Below are positions 6,297 to 16,550 of a DNA stretch of 16,550 nt, in pieces. The position numbers were made by a program, and so were the translations under genes. A model generated the notes under the pieces. That model did not search any database and had not been told where the DNA came from. It was given only the letters and a program-made list of their open reading frames with translations. Numbering within the stretch: position 1 is the stretch's first letter; each line of letters opens with the position of its first letter. The stretch covers positions 1 through 16,550 of the forward strand of contig NZ_JBHSTI010000033.1 in assembly GCF_042660085.1 (NCBI RefSeq). Direction: 5' to 3'. Origin of the DNA: Longivirga aurantiaca. GTDB lineage: Bacteria > Actinomycetota > Actinomycetes > S36-B12 > CAIYMF01.

Positions 6297-6349
6297 GGGC
6301 GGGAGCCTGCCAGAGCGGGGAGGCAGCAGGAAACCCGTGTGCCGACGCC

Positions 6350-6388
6350 GTCGAATCCGGGAGGGTGTGCTCGTACAGGGGGTGAGGG
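6350..6388 (+). promoter_or_regulatory. Candidate ECF-type promoter P1 upstream of DGPF gene 1
   Basis: GTCGAA at 6350-6355, a 15-nt spacer, TCGTACAG at 6371-6378, 3 nt, then GTGAGGG at 6382-6388. It ends 31 nt before the ATG at 6420. The same boxes with the same spacing occur at 6781-6819 and at 15472-15510 on the minus strand. Confidence 0.55.
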
Positions 6389-6419
6389 GCGGCGAGGCGC
6401 CGCCCGCCGAGGAGGAGCC

Positions 6420-6770
6420 ATGGCCTACTACAAGCTGAGCGTCTGCTACCCGAACGGCGTCGCCGAGCCGGACGCCGACGAGCTCGCACGGATCATGGCC
6501 GAGGTGGGAGCGCTGAACGACGACCTCAAGGCGGCGGGCGCCTGGGTGTTCGGTGGCGGCCTGCACGAGCCGTCGACCGCCACGGTGGTCGTGACGACCG
6601 AGGGCAGCACGTCGATGACCGACGGCCCGTTCATCGAGTCCAAGGAGCAGATCGGCGGCTTCACCATCGTGGAGGTCGACGACCTCGACGCCGCGCTCGC
6701 CTGGGCCGCGCGGTTCTCCACCGCGACGGGCACCCCCATCGAGGTCTGGCCGTTCGCCGGCATCGGCTGA
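6420..6770 (+). CDS. YciI/DGPF-family protein, paralog 1, 116 aa
   Basis: An ATG at 6420 is preceded by GGAGGAG. MAYYKLSV..., AAGAWVFGGGL, TDGPFIESKEQIGGF and IEVWPF are the hallmark blocks of YCII-related DGPF-domain proteins. Only the last 116 codons of track ORF 5496-6770 are real. Confidence 0.85.
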   Translation: MAYYKLSVCYPNGVAEPDADELARIMAEVGALNDDLKAAGAWVFGGGLHEPSTATVVVTTEGSTSMTDGPFIESKEQIGGFTIVEVDDLDAALAWAARFSTATGTPIEVWPFAGIG

Positions 6771-6780
6771 GCGCCGTCCT

Positions 6781-6819
6781 GTCGAAGCGGCCCGACGCTG
6801 TTCGTACAGCAGACGAGGG
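6781..6819 (+). promoter_or_regulatory. Candidate ECF-type promoter P2 upstream of DGPF gene 2 and, possibly, the sigma gene
   Basis: (T)GTCGAA at 6780-6786, a 15-nt spacer, TCGTACAG at 6802-6809, 3 nt, then ACGAGGG at 6813-6819. It lies in the 159-bp gap after DGPF gene 1, 110 nt before the ATG at 6930. Confidence 0.55.
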
Positions 6820-6929
6820 CGCCGCGACCGGCCCTCGCGAGGGAGGCCTGGCTGCCTCGTGGGCGGGCAGGGGCACCCTCATGCGGAATCTGAGAACGTT
6901 GTGGCACAGCATCACGAGAGGCGAGAACC

Positions 6930-7283
6930 ATGAGCGAGTACCTGCTGGCAGTGCACGGGTCGGACGACCAGGCCAACTACGCGACCGACGAGGAGATGCA
7001 GGCCGCGTTCGCAGCGGTCAACGCGTTCAACGCCGACCTGCAGGCGGCCGGCGCCTGGGTCTTCGCCGGCGGTCTGATGCCCAAGGAGACGGCGTCCGTC
7101 GTGCGGCCCACGGCCGACGGCGGGTTCACCCGTACCGACGGCCCGTTCCTCGAGAGCAAGGAGCACCTCGGCGGCTTCTGGGTGATCGACGTGGCCGACG
7201 ACGACGCGGCGTTCGAGTGGGCCGCCAAGGGGGCCAAGGCCTGCGCCCAGCCCGTCGAGGTGCGCCCCTTCCAGGGCGTGTGA
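6930..7283 (+). CDS. YciI/DGPF-family protein, paralog 2, 117 aa
   Basis: MSEYLLAVHG..., AAGAWVFAGGL, TDGPFLESKEHLGGFWVIDVAD and VEVRPFQGV. It is closely similar to the protein encoded at 15082-15438. Confidence 0.85.
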   Translation: MSEYLLAVHGSDDQANYATDEEMQAAFAAVNAFNADLQAAGAWVFAGGLMPKETASVVRPTADGGFTRTDGPFLESKEHLGGFWVIDVADDDAAFEWAAKGAKACAQPVEVRPFQGV

Positions 7284-7315: not shown

Positions 7316-7362
7316 CTGATCGATCCGTCGCTTCCCGGGCCGGGAGGCGACGGATCGATCAG
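7316..7362. repeat. 47-bp near-perfect palindrome (23-nt arms) between DGPF gene 2 and the sigma gene
   Basis: CTGATCGATCCGTCGCTTCCCGG (7316-7338) pairs with CCGGGAGGCGACGGATCGATCAG (7340-7362). Every position pairs except 7332/7346, which is T opposite G (a U-G wobble in the plus-strand RNA only). It starts 33 nt after the stop at 7283 and ends 13 nt before the GTG at 7375. Confidence 0.85.
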
Positions 7363-7374
7363 GGTGAGCAGGGG

Positions 7375-8637
7375 GTGAGGGTGGACGGAGCAGAGGTCGA
7401 GCGGGTCTTCCGCGCCGACTACGGCCGCGCGGTCGCCACCCTCGCACGCCTCGTCGGCGACATCGGCCTCGCCGAGGAGGCCGTGCAGGAGGCCTTCGCC
7501 ATCGCGCTCGAGCGCTGGCCGCGCGACGGCGTCCCGCCGAGCCCGACCGGCTGGATCGTCACCACCGCGCGCAACCGCGCGATCGACCGCGCCCGCCGCG
7601 AGGCCCTACGCGACGACAAGCACGCCGAGGCCGTCGCCCTCGCCGAGCAGCTGCGCCCCGACGAGCCCGAGGAGGTCGGCCCCGTGCGCGACGACCGCCT
7701 GCGCCTCGTGTTCACGTGCTGCCACCCGGCGCTCGCACCGGAGGCGCGCGTCGCGCTCACGCTGCGCCTGATCGCCGGGCTGCAGACCGCGCAGATCGCC
7801 CGGGCGTTCCTCGTGAGCGAGACGACGATGGCGCAACGCCTCGTCCGAGCGAAGAACAAGATCCGCGCCGCGCGCATCCCCTACCGCGTGCCCGCAGAGC
7901 ACGACCTCCCCGACCGGCTCACGCCCGTGCTCGCCGTCGTCTACCTCGTCTTCAACGAGGGCTACCTGTCGAGCGACGGCGAGAACGCCGAGCGCGCCGA
8001 CCTCGTCGAGGAGTCGGTGCGGCTCGCGCGCCTGCTCGTCGAGCTCATGCCCGACGAGCCCGAGGCGCTCGGCCTCCTCGCCCTTCTGCTGCTCACGCTG
8101 GCTCGGCGTCCGGCGCGGTTCGACGACGCCGGCGACCTCGTGCTGCTGCCGGATCAGGACCGCTCGCTCTGGGACGCGGCTCTGGTGCAGGAGGGGCAGG
8201 ACCTCGTCCGGAAGTGCTTGCGCCGCAATGCACCTGGGCCCTACCAGCTGCAGGCCGCGATCTCGGCGGTCCACTCCGACGCCGCCTCCGCCGAGTCCAC
8301 CGACTGGGCGCAGATCGTCGCGCTCTACGACCATCTCCTCGCCGTCGCGCCGTCGCCGGTGGTGGCGCTCAACCGAGCGGTCGCGGTCGCCGAGCTGCGC
8401 GGCCCGGTCGAGGGGCTGGCGCTCGTCGACGCGCTCGACCTCGACGGCTACCACCTCGCGCATGCGGTCCGCGCCGAGCTCCTGCGTCGTACGGGCGACG
8501 ACGCCGGCGCGCGGACGGCGTACGACCGGGCCCTCGGACTGGTGACGAACCCGGCCGAGCGCCGCCACCTCGAGCGCCGCATCGCCACCCTCACCGCCGA
8601 TCAGATCCTCGAGTTACTGCCCAAAAGGTCGCTCTGA
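7375..8637 (+). CDS. ECF-type sigma-70 family factor with a long C-terminal TPR-like extension (ECF42-type), 420 aa
   Basis: Region 2 (GWIVTTARNRAIDRARR) and the region 4 HTH (LQTAQIARAFLVSETTMAQRLVRAKNKIR) are followed by an extension of about 230 aa containing VYLVFNEGY and GPYQLQAAISAVH. These are typical of the sigma factors found next to DGPF/YciI genes. The start is GTG at 7375 or 7381. Confidence 0.85.
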   Translation: MRVDGAEVERVFRADYGRAVATLARLVGDIGLAEEAVQEAFAIALERWPRDGVPPSPTGWIVTTARNRAIDRARREALRDDKHAEAVALAEQLRPDEPEEVGPVRDDRLRLVFTCCHPALAPEARVALTLRLIAGLQTAQIARAFLVSETTMAQRLVRAKNKIRAARIPYRVPAEHDLPDRLTPVLAVVYLVFNEGYLSSDGENAERADLVEESVRLARLLVELMPDEPEALGLLALLLLTLARRPARFDDAGDLVLLPDQDRSLWDAALVQEGQDLVRKCLRRNAPGPYQLQAAISAVHSDAASAESTDWAQIVALYDHLLAVAPSPVVALNRAVAVAELRGPVEGLALVDALDLDGYHLAHAVRAELLRRTGDDAGARTAYDRALGLVTNPAERRHLERRIATLTADQILELLPKRSL

Positions 8638-8670
8638 GGAGCCTCACAGCGACCTTTTGGGCAGTAACTC
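8611..8670. repeat. 60-bp near-perfect palindrome (29-nt arms, 28 of 29 complementary), locally AT-richer, overlapping the 3' end of the sigma gene
   Basis: GAGTTACTGCCCAAAAGGTCGCTCTGAGG (8611-8639), then AG, then CCTCACAGCGACCTTTTGGGCAGTAACTC (8642-8670). The only mismatch is 8634/8647. The left arm encodes the last 8 codons and the TGA (8635-8637) of the sigma gene. The right arm ends 15 nt before the stop of the convergent acyl-CoA ligase gene (8686). Confidence 0.9.
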
Positions 8671-8685
8671 GCGCACGGGGCGGGG

Positions 8686-13346: not shown

Positions 13347-15008
13347 ATGGCTATGGCAGGAGCGGACGTCGTCGCGCCGACCGCTGAGCGCGAGGTGGCC
13401 CGGCCCGGCTGGGGACCGGCCCGGGTGGCCGCGGTGATCGTCGCGCTCGGCTCGCTCCTCAGCCTCATCACGGCGTGGGGGGCCTGGTCGGCGGACCAGC
13501 GCAACGAGCGCGACCTCCTCGCGGTGCAGACCAAGCAGGCGGCCGCGGTGATCGGAGGGCAGATCCTGACGATCCAGGAGCCGCTCGAGACCGCGTTGCG
13601 CGTCGCGCAGGCGACCGACGGCGACCCGGCCCGGTTCCGGCTGACGATGGGCCGCGCCACAGGTCCCGACGACGTGTTCGTCAGCGCATCTCTGTGGGAC
13701 ACCTCGGGCCCGGAACCCGTGCTGGTCGAGCAGATCGGGACCGAGCCCGTGCTCGATCCCGGCTCGGTCGACGCGCGCGAGCTCGTGCTCAAGGCCCGGG
13801 CGACGGCGGGGTTCGTCGTCACCCGCGCGGACGACGACTACAACCCTGTCTCCTACGCGGCCGGCGACCCGGTCGACCCGCGCTGGGTCGTGTACGCCGA
13901 GCGCGCCATCCCCGCGGACCGCATCGCCCCGGTGCAGCGGACCGCACCGTTCGCCGAGCTCCACTTCGCGACGTACATCGGTGCCGCCGACGACCCGTCG
14001 AACCTTGTCACCACGAACGTGACCATGGACGAGCTCCCCCTGACGGGCGGGACGTCGTCGGTGGAGCTCCCGTTCGGCGACAAGACGCTCACGTTCGTGG
14101 CCACGGCCAAGCGGCACCTCGGGGGCGAGCTCGGATGGCTGCTCCCGTGGCTGATCCTCGCCGTCGGCCTCGCCCTCACGATGATCACGGCGTTCGCAGC
14201 GGCGAACCTGGTGCGCTCCCGACGTCGCGCCGAGGCCGACCGCCGGACGATCGCCGACCTCTACGACCGGCTCGACGTGCTCTACGGCGAGCAGCGCAGC
14301 ATCGCTCAGACCCTGCAGCGGGCCCTGCTCCCGGCGTTCAACCCGGACATCCCCGGGCTCGATATCGCGTCCCGGTACGTCGCCGGCGCGGAGGGCGTCG
14401 ACATCGGCGGCGACTGGTACAGCATCATCCGCCGGGGCGAGCGCGAGGTGTGCTTCGTCGTCGGCGACGTGTCGGGCCGCGGCATCGGTGCGGCCACCGT
14501 GATGGCGCGGCTGCGCTTCACGATCCGCGCCTACCTCGCCGAGGGGCACAGCCCCGGAGTCGTGCTCGGTATGTGCTCCGAGCAGTTCGACATCGACGAG
14601 GACGGCCACATCGCCACGGTGGTGGTCGGCGTCCTCGACCTCGACACCTGCGGCCTCGTGCTTGCCAGCGCCGGACACTTCGCGCCGCTCGTGGTCGACG
14701 CCGAGGGCACGGCGAGATACCTCGAGCTCGACCCCGGGCCGCCGCTCGGCGTCATGGCGACGACCTACCGCGAGACCACGCCGTCGATGGGCGTCGGATC
14801 GACCCTGGTCGCCTTCACCGACGGCCTGGTGGAGCGCCGGGGCGAGAGCCTCGACGTGGGGCTGGACAGGCTTGCCCGCGCCGCCGCCCGCGGGTCGTCC
14901 ACCGTGGATCACCTGCTCGACGTCCTGGTGGGCCATCTGTTGGAGGACGGACCCGAGGACGACACAGCCCTGCTCGCGTTCCGCTGCCTCGGCGACGACA
15001 CGGCCTGA
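13347..15008 (+). CDS. Membrane-bound PP2C/SpoIIE-family serine/threonine phosphatase with an extracytoplasmic sensor-like domain, about 551-553 aa
   Basis: Two hydrophobic segments (AAVIVALGSLLSLITAWGAW and WLLPWLILAVGLALTMITAFAAA) bracket a domain of about 210 aa. The C-terminal half carries SpoIIE/PP2C blocks: DIGGDWY, VVGDVSGRGIGAA and AFTDGLVE. The start is ATG at 13347 or 13353. Confidence 0.8.
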   Translation: MAMAGADVVAPTAEREVARPGWGPARVAAVIVALGSLLSLITAWGAWSADQRNERDLLAVQTKQAAAVIGGQILTIQEPLETALRVAQATDGDPARFRLTMGRATGPDDVFVSASLWDTSGPEPVLVEQIGTEPVLDPGSVDARELVLKARATAGFVVTRADDDYNPVSYAAGDPVDPRWVVYAERAIPADRIAPVQRTAPFAELHFATYIGAADDPSNLVTTNVTMDELPLTGGTSSVELPFGDKTLTFVATAKRHLGGELGWLLPWLILAVGLALTMITAFAAANLVRSRRRAEADRRTIADLYDRLDVLYGEQRSIAQTLQRALLPAFNPDIPGLDIASRYVAGAEGVDIGGDWYSIIRRGEREVCFVVGDVSGRGIGAATVMARLRFTIRAYLAEGHSPGVVLGMCSEQFDIDEDGHIATVVVGVLDLDTCGLVLASAGHFAPLVVDAEGTARYLELDPGPPLGVMATTYRETTPSMGVGSTLVAFTDGLVERRGESLDVGLDRLARAAARGSSTVDHLLDVLVGHLLEDGPEDDTALLAFRCLGDDTA

Positions 15009-15081: not shown

Positions 15082-15438
15082 TCAATCGCCGACGACCCCC
15101 TGGAACGGGCGGACCTCCACCGCGCCCTCGCAGGCCACGGTCGCGCGCTCCGCCCATGCCAGGGCCTCGGCCTCGTCGGCGACGTCGAGCACCCAGAAGC
15201 CGCCGATGTGCTCCTTGCTCTCGAGGTACGGGCCGTCGGTGCGCTCCAGCGCGCCGTCACGCGCGCGGACGACGCGGGCGGTCGTCGACGCCGCGAGCCC
15301 TCCGGCGAAGACGAAGACCCCGGCCTCGCGCATGGCGTCGTTGACCCTCCCGGTCGCCGCGAACGCGCGCTCGGCGTGCTCCGGGGTCGGGTAGACCGGG
15401 GTGTCGTCGTTGTGGACCGACAGCAGGTAGTGGGTCAT
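15082..15438 (-). CDS. YciI/DGPF-family protein, paralog 3, 118 aa
   Basis: The ATG at 15438 is preceded by GAGGAG 6 nt upstream on the minus strand. MTHYLLSVH..., FVFAGGL, TDGPYLESKEHIGGFWVLDVAD and VEVRPFQGV. Confidence 0.85.
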   Translation of the reverse strand: MTHYLLSVHNDDTPVYPTPEHAERAFAATGRVNDAMREAGVFVFAGGLAASTTARVVRARDGALERTDGPYLESKEHIGGFWVLDVADEAEALAWAERATVACEGAVEVRPFQGVVGD

Positions 15439-15471
15439 GCGGGGCTCCTCGGCTGCGGCCGGCGGCTCCGG

Positions 15472-15510
15472 CCCTCACGAACTGCACGATCTGCACGACG
15501 CCGATTCGAC
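15472..15510 (-). promoter_or_regulatory. Candidate ECF-type promoter P3 upstream of DGPF gene 3
   Basis: The minus strand reads GTCGAA (15510-15505), a 15-nt spacer, TCGTGCAG (15489-15482), 3 nt, then GTGAGGG (15478-15472). It ends 33 nt before the ATG at 15438. A second GGTCGAAT box sits 8 nt further upstream (15513-15520). Confidence 0.55.
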
Positions 15511-15599
15511 CATTCGACCGCACGGATCCGCCTCGGAGCGCGGCGGTATCGCCGGCTCGGTGCCGATCCTGCCGCGACCGGGCCGTGCGTGCTGGACCG

Positions 15600-16550
15600 A
15601 TGCCTGCCCCGCTGTGCGGCGTCGGCGATACTCGTGCGGTGAGGGAGCAGTGGTTCACCCGTGCGACCGAGCTGGACCCGATCGGTCCGACGGTCCGCGA
15701 GGTCGACTGGGCCAGCACCTCGTGGGGCCCGCCCGAGGACTGGGCACCGGGGCTCCGGTCGGCGGTGGAGATCTGCCTGAGCACGCGCTTCCCCGTGCTC
15801 GTCACGTGGGGCCCGGACCTCCTCATGCTCTACAACGAGGGCTACCGCGCCATGCTCGGACGCGAGAAGCAGGCAGGTGCGACCGGGCGGCCGGTGGCGC
15901 AGGTCTGGAGCGAGGTGTGGCCCGACATCTCGCCGCTGTTCGGCCAGGTGCTGTCCACCGGCGTCCCCGTCTACCTGGAGGACACCCCGCTGAGGGTGAA
16001 CCGCTCCGGGTACGACGAGGACGCGTGGTTCACGTTCTGCTACTCCGCGCTGAGGGACGAGAGCGGCCAGGTCCAGGGCGTTCTCGACATCGCGTACGAG
16101 ACGACCGAGCAGGTGGTGGCTCGTCGTCGGCTGTCGTTCGTCTCGATGCTGTCGACGCAGCTGCACGCGGCCACCGGGGACGTCGACGCCCTCGGCCGGG
16201 TCGTGTCCGACGTCCTCGGGCGGTCCCTGGACCTGCATGCCGCCGAGCTCTCGCTGCTCGTCGACGAGCGGTTCATCCCCCTCGCCCGGGCCAACCCGCG
16301 CGAAGTGCCGCTGCTGGACCCGTCGACCGTCCCCGAGCTTGTCCGGTCGCACCGGGCCCAGGTGGTCGGAGACACGTTCGTCATGCCGTTGACCGGGTCG
16401 GCCACCGATCCGGTGGTCGGAGTCCTGGCCCTGCGGGCGACCGCGGGACGGGCACCCGACGGCCTGCAGCTCGACTTCATGGAGCTCGTCGGGGTGACGA
16501 TCGCGAGCGCGCTCAGCACCTCGGTGAAGCACATGAGCGAGGTCGGCGAG
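15600..16550 (+). CDS. PAS (PAS_4-like) and GAF-like sensor protein, 3' end outside the window; the output domain is not visible
   Basis: This CDS is not in the supplied ORF track. I read the frame codon by codon from 15600 to 16550 and found no stop. GC3 is high. WGPPEDWAP...FPVLVTWGPDLLMLYNEGYRAMLGREK...DAWFTFCYSALRDESGQVQGVL is a typical PAS_4 N-terminal sensor block, followed by a GAF-like region. The start is tentative: ATG at 15600, with in-frame alternatives GTG at 15585 and 15639. Confidence 0.7.
   Translation, partial: MPAPLCGVGDTRAVREQWFTRATELDPIGPTVREVDWASTSWGPPEDWAPGLRSAVEICLSTRFPVLVTWGPDLLMLYNEGYRAMLGREKQAGATGRPVAQVWSEVWPDISPLFGQVLSTGVPVYLEDTPLRVNRSGYDEDAWFTFCYSALRDESGQVQGVLDIAYETTEQVVARRRLSFVSMLSTQLHAATGDVDALGRVVSDVLGRSLDLHAAELSLLVDERFIPLARANPREVPLLDPSTVPELVRSHRAQVVGDTFVMPLTGSATDPVVGVLALRATAGRAPDGLQLDFMELVGVTIASALSTSVKHMSEVGE

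Follow-up and report, generated by a model that had tools for sequence, protein, structure and literature searches.

A 16,550-bp stretch of DNA from the little-studied actinobacterium Longivirga aurantiaca (contig NZ_JBHSTI010000033.1), analysed here at its full length and called the window below, carries the gene for a sigma factor of the extracytoplasmic function (ECF) type, two genes for YCII-domain (DGPF) proteins upstream of it on the same strand, a convergent AMP-binding gene downstream, and a third YCII gene 7 kb off. Each YCII gene lies downstream of a copy of one motif, GTCGAA-N15-TCGT(A/G)CAG-N3-(G/A)(T/C)GAGGG, which a first-pass annotation had picked out and read as a candidate promoter of the neighbouring sigma factor. 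We set out below the properties of this motif in the window and at loci of homologous sigma factors in other bacteria, and argue that the three copies, denoted P1 to P3, are very probably promoters read by RNA polymerase with a sigma factor of the ECF42 group, most simply the product of the gene at 7381-8637, with the start sites and leader stem-loop proposed further on. The genes concerned, and a structural feature between two of them, are as follows.

6420-6770, plus strand: DGPF1, YCII-domain protein of 116 aa (Pfam PF03795, E = 3.6e-17)
6930-7283, plus strand: DGPF2, YCII-domain protein of 117 aa (Pfam PF03795, E = 4.3e-14)
7316-7362, plus strand: inverted repeat between DGPF2 and the sigma factor gene, with 23-nt arms that are 96 % complementary and a continuous stem of 22 bp
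7381-8637, plus strand: ECF42-type sigma factor of 418 aa, starting at GTG 7381 as in the NCBI protein, with an alternative GTG at 7375
15082-15438, minus strand: DGPF3, YCII-domain protein of 118 aa (Pfam PF03795, E = 1.6e-14)

The window has no YCII genes other than these three, and NCBIfam holds no model for DGPF proteins. The start of DGPF1, placed at 6421 at first, is corrected to 6420.

A sigma factor with the architecture of ECF42

ECF42 sigma factors are distinguished by a TPR-rich extension of about 200 residues, the lack of an anti-sigma factor and a conserved YCII-domain neighbour (PMC8999054; PMC9023288), the last being regarded in reviews as a hallmark of the group (PMC8999054). 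In the window protein, which is 100 % identical to a sigma factor recorded for Longivirga aurantiaca, Pfam finds Sigma70_r2 (residues 13-75) and Sigma70_r4_2 (111-161), no other core domain, and DUF6596 at 179-279; the core thus comprises regions 2 and 4 only, region 3 being absent, as is characteristic of ECF factors, and its nearest relatives of solved structure are the ECF sigmas SigK, SigL and SigE. Some 250 aa follow region 4. Within them, TPR_14, TPR_21 and TPR_2 give sub-threshold matches at residues 343-402 (E = 0.1-0.2), while homologues at about 70 % identity have precomputed TPR matches. The AlphaFold (AF2) model is all-alpha after region 4, with a mean predicted local distance difference test (pLDDT) score of 76.5 and values above 90 over much of the C-terminal half, and the top 50 Foldseek matches of the C-terminus in the PDB are TPR or TPR-like helical-repeat proteins, among them Tom70, consensus TPR designs, TTC0263 and Pex5, with E values of only about 1e-3. 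No anti-sigma domain occurs among the window open reading frames that were scanned. The NCBIfam label is the generic one of the sigma70-ECF superfamily, and the assignment to ECF42 made here is founded on domain architecture and neighbourhood.

Three copies of a promoter-like motif in the window

When up to two mismatches are allowed, the full 39-nt pattern has exactly three matches in the window, which agrees with the first-pass statement that there is no further site, and it has none in 200 dinucleotide-preserving shuffles. The looser core GTCGA-N15-19-CGTV is frequent (33 matches against 12 expected), and specificity therefore resides in the full pattern. Direct reading returns the coordinates, strands and letters originally reported for the three sites.

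6349-6388, plus strand: predicted promoter P1, with site 1 (6350-6388) reading GTCGAA-TCCGGGAGGGTGTGC-TCGTACAG-GGG-GTGAGGG; -35 cGTCGAA at 6349-6355, -10 cTCGTACAG at 6370-6378, start-site box GTGA at 6382-6385
6780-6819, plus strand: predicted promoter P2, with site 2 (6781-6819) reading GTCGAA-GCGGCCCGACGCTGT-TCGTACAG-CAG-ACGAGGG; -35 TGTCGAA at 6780-6786, -10 GTTCGTACAG at 6800-6809
15472-15511, minus strand: predicted promoter P3, with site 3 (15472-15510) reading GTCGAA-TCGGCGTCGTGCAGA-TCGTGCAG-TTC-GTGAGGG; -35 gGTCGAA at 15511-15505, -10 aTCGTGCAG at 15490-15482

Aligned on the -35 box, the sites are identical in 21 of 39 columns (chance, about 0.10 per column), and the distance from GTCGA to CGT is 17 nt in all three; the 15-nt spacers are, as had been said of them, unrelated to one another. 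P2, which begins 10 nt past the stop codon of DGPF1, alone has the T that precedes GTCGA in the consensus derived below. Every site stands upstream of a YCII gene, again as first described.

That the boxes might be functionless remnants of the duplications behind the DGPF genes is suggested by the paralogy of the three genes and by the recent local duplication at site 3. The paralogues, however, have diverged to pairwise identities of 42-57 % in protein and 52-63 % at third codon positions, so that neutral positions are saturated, whereas the boxes are intact; the boxes are therefore not a leftover of duplication, as the first-pass annotation had also maintained, and the comparative data of the next section bear on the same point.

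Two repeats in and near the sites may be recorded here. The boxes of P3 lie within short tandem repeats, of period 8 in 2 copies (15504-15519) and period 9 in 2.6 copies (15476-15498), whose units on the minus strand of 15476-15519 are GGTCGAAT (x 2) and TCGTGCAGN (x 2.6); as a result, an additional -35/-10 pair, spaced by 16 nt, overlaps the first from 9 nt upstream, and the duplication of the -10 element is present also in one close relative (L154) and absent from two others (L152 and L155). The 13-mer CAGGGGGTGAGGG that follows the -10 element of site 1 (6376-6388) recurs exactly at 7369-7381, over the sigma start codons GTG 7375/7381, where no -35/-10 pair lies upstream; its chance expectation in the window is about 0.003 by our own rough estimate, and the recurrence may be a relic of rearrangement.

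The motif accompanies this sigma factor family across phyla

The sigma factor was aligned with 12 homologues, and 80 loci, chosen by the sigma factor alone, were fetched from named genomes, mostly of Actinomycetota but also of Acidobacteriota, Chloroflexota, Proteobacteria, Gemmatimonadota, Planctomycetota and Nitrospira. A search with a hidden Markov model of the three DGPF proteins in the window shows that 76 of these loci contain a DGPF gene, which almost always immediately precedes the sigma gene. The core GTCG[AT]-N17-CGT is present 60 times in the 200-nt intervals before DGPF starts, a density of 3.86 per kb against 0.069 per kb elsewhere; the scan of orthologous loci for enrichment upstream of YCII genes, which the first-pass annotation had proposed as a check, thus gives a 56-fold excess and not a background frequency. 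Where the core is lacking from that interval, the complete motif mostly lies another 0.5-1 kb upstream, ahead of an intervening gene of the RibD_C, DUF6069 or SMP-30/gluconolactonase-like kind, and the spacing from GTCGx to CGT is 17 nt in 71 of 76 sites.

A position weight matrix (PWM) trained on 67 sites of other genomes, with the window sites excluded, has the consensus T-GTCGAT-yy ... cGTTCGTgTAG-N3-GTGAg. Applied to the window, it ranks P2 first (26.9 bits), then P1 (26.4) and P3 (19.4), the next best position scoring -9.7, about 29 bits lower. With a threshold of at least 15 bits, a site is found within 1.6 kb upstream of the sigma gene at 70 of the 80 loci, a count with some circularity, since most of these sites had served to train the matrix; in 1.8 million positions there are four other hits, two before a second DGPF gene, one before a RibD_C gene and one before a gene for a tricorn-like protease, all of them plausible members of the regulon. 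A motif-first scan of metagenome contigs with the -35/-10 consensus only gave 71 matches, mostly chance occurrences in low-GC coding DNA, and serves as a small independent sample; a DGPF gene follows in 9 of them, and RibD_C or SGL (that is, SMP-30/gluconolactonase-like) genes follow several high-GC ones.

In the closest relatives, whose sigma factors are 86-88 % identical to that of the window, the locus is fully syntenic, with the arrangement of three DGPF genes and sigma gene kept, and the boxes are kept while the spacers have diverged (P1 and P2 in L152 and L154; P3 in L152, L154 and L155). Fixed boxes between diverging spacers in close syntenic relatives, together with the recurrence of the same boxes and spacing at 70 of 80 loci in several phyla, effectively refute the notion of neutral remnants, to which we attach a negligible probability.

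Elsewhere the same promoter stands before genes of other kinds: RibD_C genes, dihydrofolate-reductase-like (loci L004, L006, L009, L014, L025, L069, L095, L108, L122, L131 and L136), genes for DUF6069 membrane proteins (L008, L032), SGL genes (L059, L083, L105) and a gene for the tricorn-like protease (L055); these promoters usually bear the same leader hairpin as is described below. RibD_C, DUF6069, SGL and tricorn-like genes, none of which occurs in the window, are candidate members of a wider ECF42 regulon.

Agreement with mapped ECF42 promoters and predicted start sites

The published ECF42 promoter consensus used for comparison was taken solely from a table for Sinorhizobium meliloti (PMC6180224), in which promoters of the ECF42 factor RpoE10 conform to TGTCGG-N17-CGTC and the printed sequences end at the mapped transcription start site (TSS). 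Two of them read CCC-TGTCGG-CAGGCGGCATCCTCCTT-CGTC-CTTGGAATg and ACGA-TGTCGG-ATCGGTTGCGGCTGGTG-CGTC-ATCGTATCA, and a third RpoE10 motif precedes the S. meliloti YCII gene SMc01151 (PMC6180224). The geometry GTCGN-N17-CGT is identical in these promoters and in the window sites. Two claims of the first-pass annotation are hence borne out: that the arrangement (a -35-like GTCGA, 17 nt, then a -10-like CGT) is that of an ECF-type promoter, it being the same as in TSS-mapped ECF42 promoters of S. meliloti, and that a TGTCGA-type -35 box belongs to ECF42, given TGTCGG in S. meliloti and the conservation at 70 of 80 sigma loci. ECF42 is not mentioned in the main text of Rhodius 2013, and RIViT-seq contains no ECF42 data.

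Known ECF42 systems, represented by SVEN_0747, SVEN_4377 and SVEN_7131 of Streptomyces venezuelae, RpoE10 of S. meliloti and ECF-10 of Pseudomonas putida, share with the window a sigma2-sigma4 core with a TPR-type extension of about 200 aa, the lack of an anti-sigma factor, a YCII/DGPF gene immediately upstream, and a promoter of the form TGTCG(A/G)-N17-CGT(C/A) with the TSS, predicted by analogy in the window, some 12 nt past the C of its CGT. The window differs from them in having three separately promoted DGPF genes, in the long hairpin between DGPF2 and the sigma gene where most ECF42 lineages show translational coupling, and in promoters that use GTCGAA and CAG (GTCGAT and TAG in the majority), two of them without the T of the -35 element. 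For the start sites and the sigma dependence, the analogy extends to ECF42 work reported for S. venezuelae by Liu et al. in 2018.

The third box of the motif, RYGAGGG, finds its explanation in the same comparison. When the C of CGT is numbered 0, both mapped S. meliloti start sites fall at index 12, on the 13th nucleotide, with a pyrimidine at index 11 (PMC6180224), and among the 67 non-window sites indices 11, 12 and 13 are T in 61, G in 58 and A in 48, a conservation about equal to that of parts of the -35 and -10 elements. Because the conserved T11/G12 coincides with the pyrimidine(-1)/purine(+1) step of the S. meliloti start sites, we read the (G/A)(T/C)G of RYGAGGG as the start site. By this analogy, transcription is predicted to begin at G6384 (P1), G6815 (P2) and G15476 (P3), 6 nt after the TCGTRCAG box and so at the low end of the 6-9 nt first forecast. 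The box is thus conserved, as the first-pass annotation had it; it would belong not to the sequence recognised by the sigma factor, in the common definition, but to the start-site dinucleotide and, after it, the first bases of a leader hairpin. A leaderless small open reading frame from the GTG of GTGAGGG was considered and rejected, being out of frame with DGPF1 and facing ACG at site 2.

Which sigma factor would read the three sites

We infer the dependence of P1 to P3 on an ECF42 sigma factor in Longivirga aurantiaca by analogy with these systems, and the first-pass suggestion that the window contains a sigma factor together with at least three of its target promoters gains support from the ECF42 architecture of the protein and from the conservation of the motif at 70 of 80 loci. 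Several observations pull the other way. The window sites score 19-27 bits against a median of 41.7 for sites elsewhere; the T at -23 before GTCGA, present in 65 of the 67 sites elsewhere, is replaced by C in P1 (6349) and by G in P3 (15511); the S. meliloti YCII-rpoE10 operon did not respond to overexpression of RpoE10 (PMC6180224); and P3 lies 7 kb from the sigma gene, with possible paralogues of the sigma factor elsewhere in the genome. The relatives L152 and L154 carry the consensus T at site 1, and the window allele may accordingly be a weakened promoter.

The distance of P3 and the possible paralogues would also suit promoters that belong to another ECF group with a similar motif, or to an ECF42 paralogue encoded elsewhere, in which case the adjacent sigma factor would not be their regulator. 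A CGT-type -10 element is common to many ECF groups, three ECF42 paralogues have been reported in S. venezuelae (PMC8999054), and the window is a contig of 16.5 kb only. The nearest group in the S. meliloti study, ECF41 (RpoE9 of S. meliloti, SigJ of Mycobacterium tuberculosis), does resemble ECF42 in its fused C-terminal regulatory domain, in the lack of an anti-sigma factor, in a small regulon headed by the gene just upstream, and in a -35 element that begins with TGTC and a -10 element CGTC; its -35 element, however, is TGTCACA and not TGTCGA (PMC6180224), its extension is SnoaL-like and not of the TPR type, and its neighbour encodes a carboxymuconolactone decarboxylase or an oxidoreductase and not a YCII protein. 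Since the motif is, moreover, tightly linked to the present sigma family (70 of 80 loci picked by the sigma factor alone) and the synteny of three DGPF genes and sigma gene is kept in relatives, we hold a different regulator to be very improbable and the product of 7381-8637 to be the simplest candidate.

A probable stem-loop at the start of the leader

Downstream of the predicted start sites, the leaders of the three DGPF transcripts have the following inverted repeats.

6387-6405, plus strand: leader stem-loop 1, GGGCGGCG-AGG-CGCCGCCC, 8 bp, starting 3 nt after the predicted 5' end
6815-6836, plus strand: possible stem GAGGGC/GCCCTC at the start of the 115-nt leader 2, atypical and weakly supported
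15457-15473, minus strand: leader stem-loop 3, GGCCGG-AGCCG-CCGGCC

Stem-loop 1 is present in both the minimum free energy (MFE) and the centroid fold, scores 43.1 bits with covariance model R1, and has a compensatory change from G:C to A:U in L152. Stem-loop 3 is not the MFE structure of the single sequence; it scores 34.3 bits with R1 and has the compensatory form GACCGG/CCGGTC in both L154 and L152. The stem of leader 2 appears in folds of the sequence but reaches only 16.5 bits (E = 0.64), with a different hairpin in L154 and no long leader in L152. The hairpin is thus clear at site 1, plausible at site 3 and doubtful at site 2.

In 38 hand-picked hairpin-bearing sites from the wider set, a helix of 7 bp has 87.5 % of its cells paired, a level that 0 of 500 column shuffles reached (75 %), and controls with a slid partner give 23-45 %; compensatory changes occur at all 7 pairs, and RNAalifold independently predicts the inner 5 pairs. 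Unselected sites tell a similar story: 35 of 71 (49 %) have 6 bp or more of unbroken stem whose start lies no further than 12 nt from GTGAG, whereas dinucleotide shuffles give 9 % and random positions in the genomes 20 % (Fisher p = 1e-7). The stems begin about 2-5 nt after the predicted 5' end (median about 4), the loop is mostly of 5 nt, and the 5' arms are varied, 33 of the 45 being distinct. With a covariance model derived from the 38 sites, leaders outside its seed are strongly recovered, and the hairpin occurs in several phyla (Actinomycetota, Acidobacteriota, Proteobacteria) and before unrelated genes (DGPF, RibD_C, SGL, DUF6069).

Other results are less favourable to a structured leader RNA. 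The hairpin is missing from short-leader promoters. When folded singly, the leaders of the window show a stability no greater than that of shuffles (z = -1.4, -1.4 and +0.4), and the evidence for the hairpin is comparative only. G.U pairs, which would mark an RNA and not a DNA structure, outnumber A.C mismatches by 16 to 8 in the columns of a MAFFT alignment (p = 0.08); the count of 41 to 19 obtained with the covariance model is biased, since false positives show the same leaning once they are fitted to the model. A comparison of the longest stems in sense and antisense is confounded.

These results leave room for an operator of a conventional regulator, for instance a repressor on the palindrome GCCGGC-N5-GCCGGC a short way downstream, acting instead of or besides the sigma promoter, with the hairpin being in fact an inverted repeat in DNA. 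A CCGG core is shared by both arms in 31 of the 38 sites aligned, half-sites that co-vary symmetrically can look like RNA covariation, and the strand test is not significant on the unbiased alignment. Stems of 5-10 bp, loops of 3-8 nt and a distance of 9-12 nt between the CCGG cores, however, are unsuited to a dimer with fixed spacing, and diverse arms (33 of 45 distinct) and the excess of G.U over A.C, about 2:1 in every count, likewise argue against an operator. The -35/-10 part, for its own part, is asymmetric, keeps a fixed 17-nt spacing and matches mapped ECF42 promoters with the TSS at the right distance, and the element accompanies the promoter before any gene, be it DGPF, RibD_C, SGL or DUF6069. 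On balance we consider an operator improbable, and keep to an ECF42 promoter followed by a leader stem-loop.

Stem-loops at the 5' terminus stabilise bacterial mRNAs, as in the Escherichia coli ompA leader and the Bacillus subtilis ermC and aprE leaders. The leader hairpin resembles these in being stable, a few nucleotides from the predicted 5' end and independent of the downstream gene, and differs from generic 5' stabilisers in being tied to the promoters of one sigma factor across phyla. Rfam 15 has no match at or near the three leaders, even at E values up to 10, and in the accessible literature we found no description of the conserved start-site box and leader stem-loop. As a speculation that we think has a small chance of being right, the stem-loop could be an undescribed cis-acting element specifically coupled to the ECF42 family, present in about half of its transcripts, and, instead of a generic stabiliser, a possible point at which the DGPF protein or the TPR extension of the sigma factor feeds back on early elongation or mRNA fate.

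Hairpins around the sigma factor gene

Immediately before the sigma gene the PWM scan finds no promoter. The gap between the DGPF and sigma genes has a median of 4 nt in 48 other loci (coupled genes), which implies an autoregulated operon; in the window it is about 95 nt, most of it occupied by the inverted repeat at 7316-7362, whose stem is more stable than shuffles (z = -4.87, with 0 of 200 shuffles as stable). The close relatives L152, L154, L155 and L156 also have a long hairpin there, whose sequence in L152 is unrelated. Its role may be to modulate transcription that reads through into the sigma gene, as an attenuator, a terminator or a processing site.

A second inverted repeat, at 8610-8671, has 30-nt arms that are 97 % complementary, overlaps the sigma stop codon (8635-8637) and separates the sigma gene from the convergent AMP-binding gene, probably serving as a bidirectional terminator. 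Two unusually long hairpins (7316-7362 and 8610-8671) thus frame the sigma gene. DGPF3, for its part, is flanked by a gene for a SpoIIE-type PP2C phosphatase and a PAS/GAF gene (13347-15008 and about 15700-16550 of the window, both on the plus strand), the latter being PAS-SpoIIE in relatives, and genes for a protein that binds cyclic nucleotide monophosphates (cNMP) and a metallophosphoesterase lie nearby, in a signalling-rich neighbourhood that is syntenic in relatives.

Proposed mechanism and implications

In the mechanism that we propose, (T)GTCGAA would be recognised by region 4 of the sigma factor, and the CGT of TCGTRCAG, which follows GTCGA after 17 nt, by region 2. The first transcribed nucleotide would be the purine at index 12 from the C of CGT (G6384, G6815 and G15476), and RYGAGGG would combine the pyrimidine(-1)/G(+1) step with the 5' arm of the GC-rich stem-loop near the mRNA 5' end. 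P1 and P2 would drive DGPF1 and DGPF2, and P3 would drive DGPF3; read-through from P1 and P2 past the hairpin at 7316-7362 into the sigma gene may provide positive feedback, as in lineages with coupled DGPF and sigma genes. The leader stem-loop, as our best guess, would shield the 5' end from RNases that depend on it.

The relationship of promoter, ECF42 and DGPF is already known from other bacteria, and the start-site box and the stem-loop are modest additions to it. The ECF42 promoter model is nonetheless sharpened, by a near-invariant T before GTCGA, a TTCGT -10 element and a T/G step at the start site. For Longivirga aurantiaca, the annotation gains an ECF42 sigma factor, three predicted promoters with TSS predictions at single-nucleotide resolution and a putative three-gene DGPF regulon, and a locus in which each of three DGPF paralogues has a predicted promoter to itself and a structured barrier precedes the sigma gene would offer a compact natural system in which to follow feedback in ECF42.

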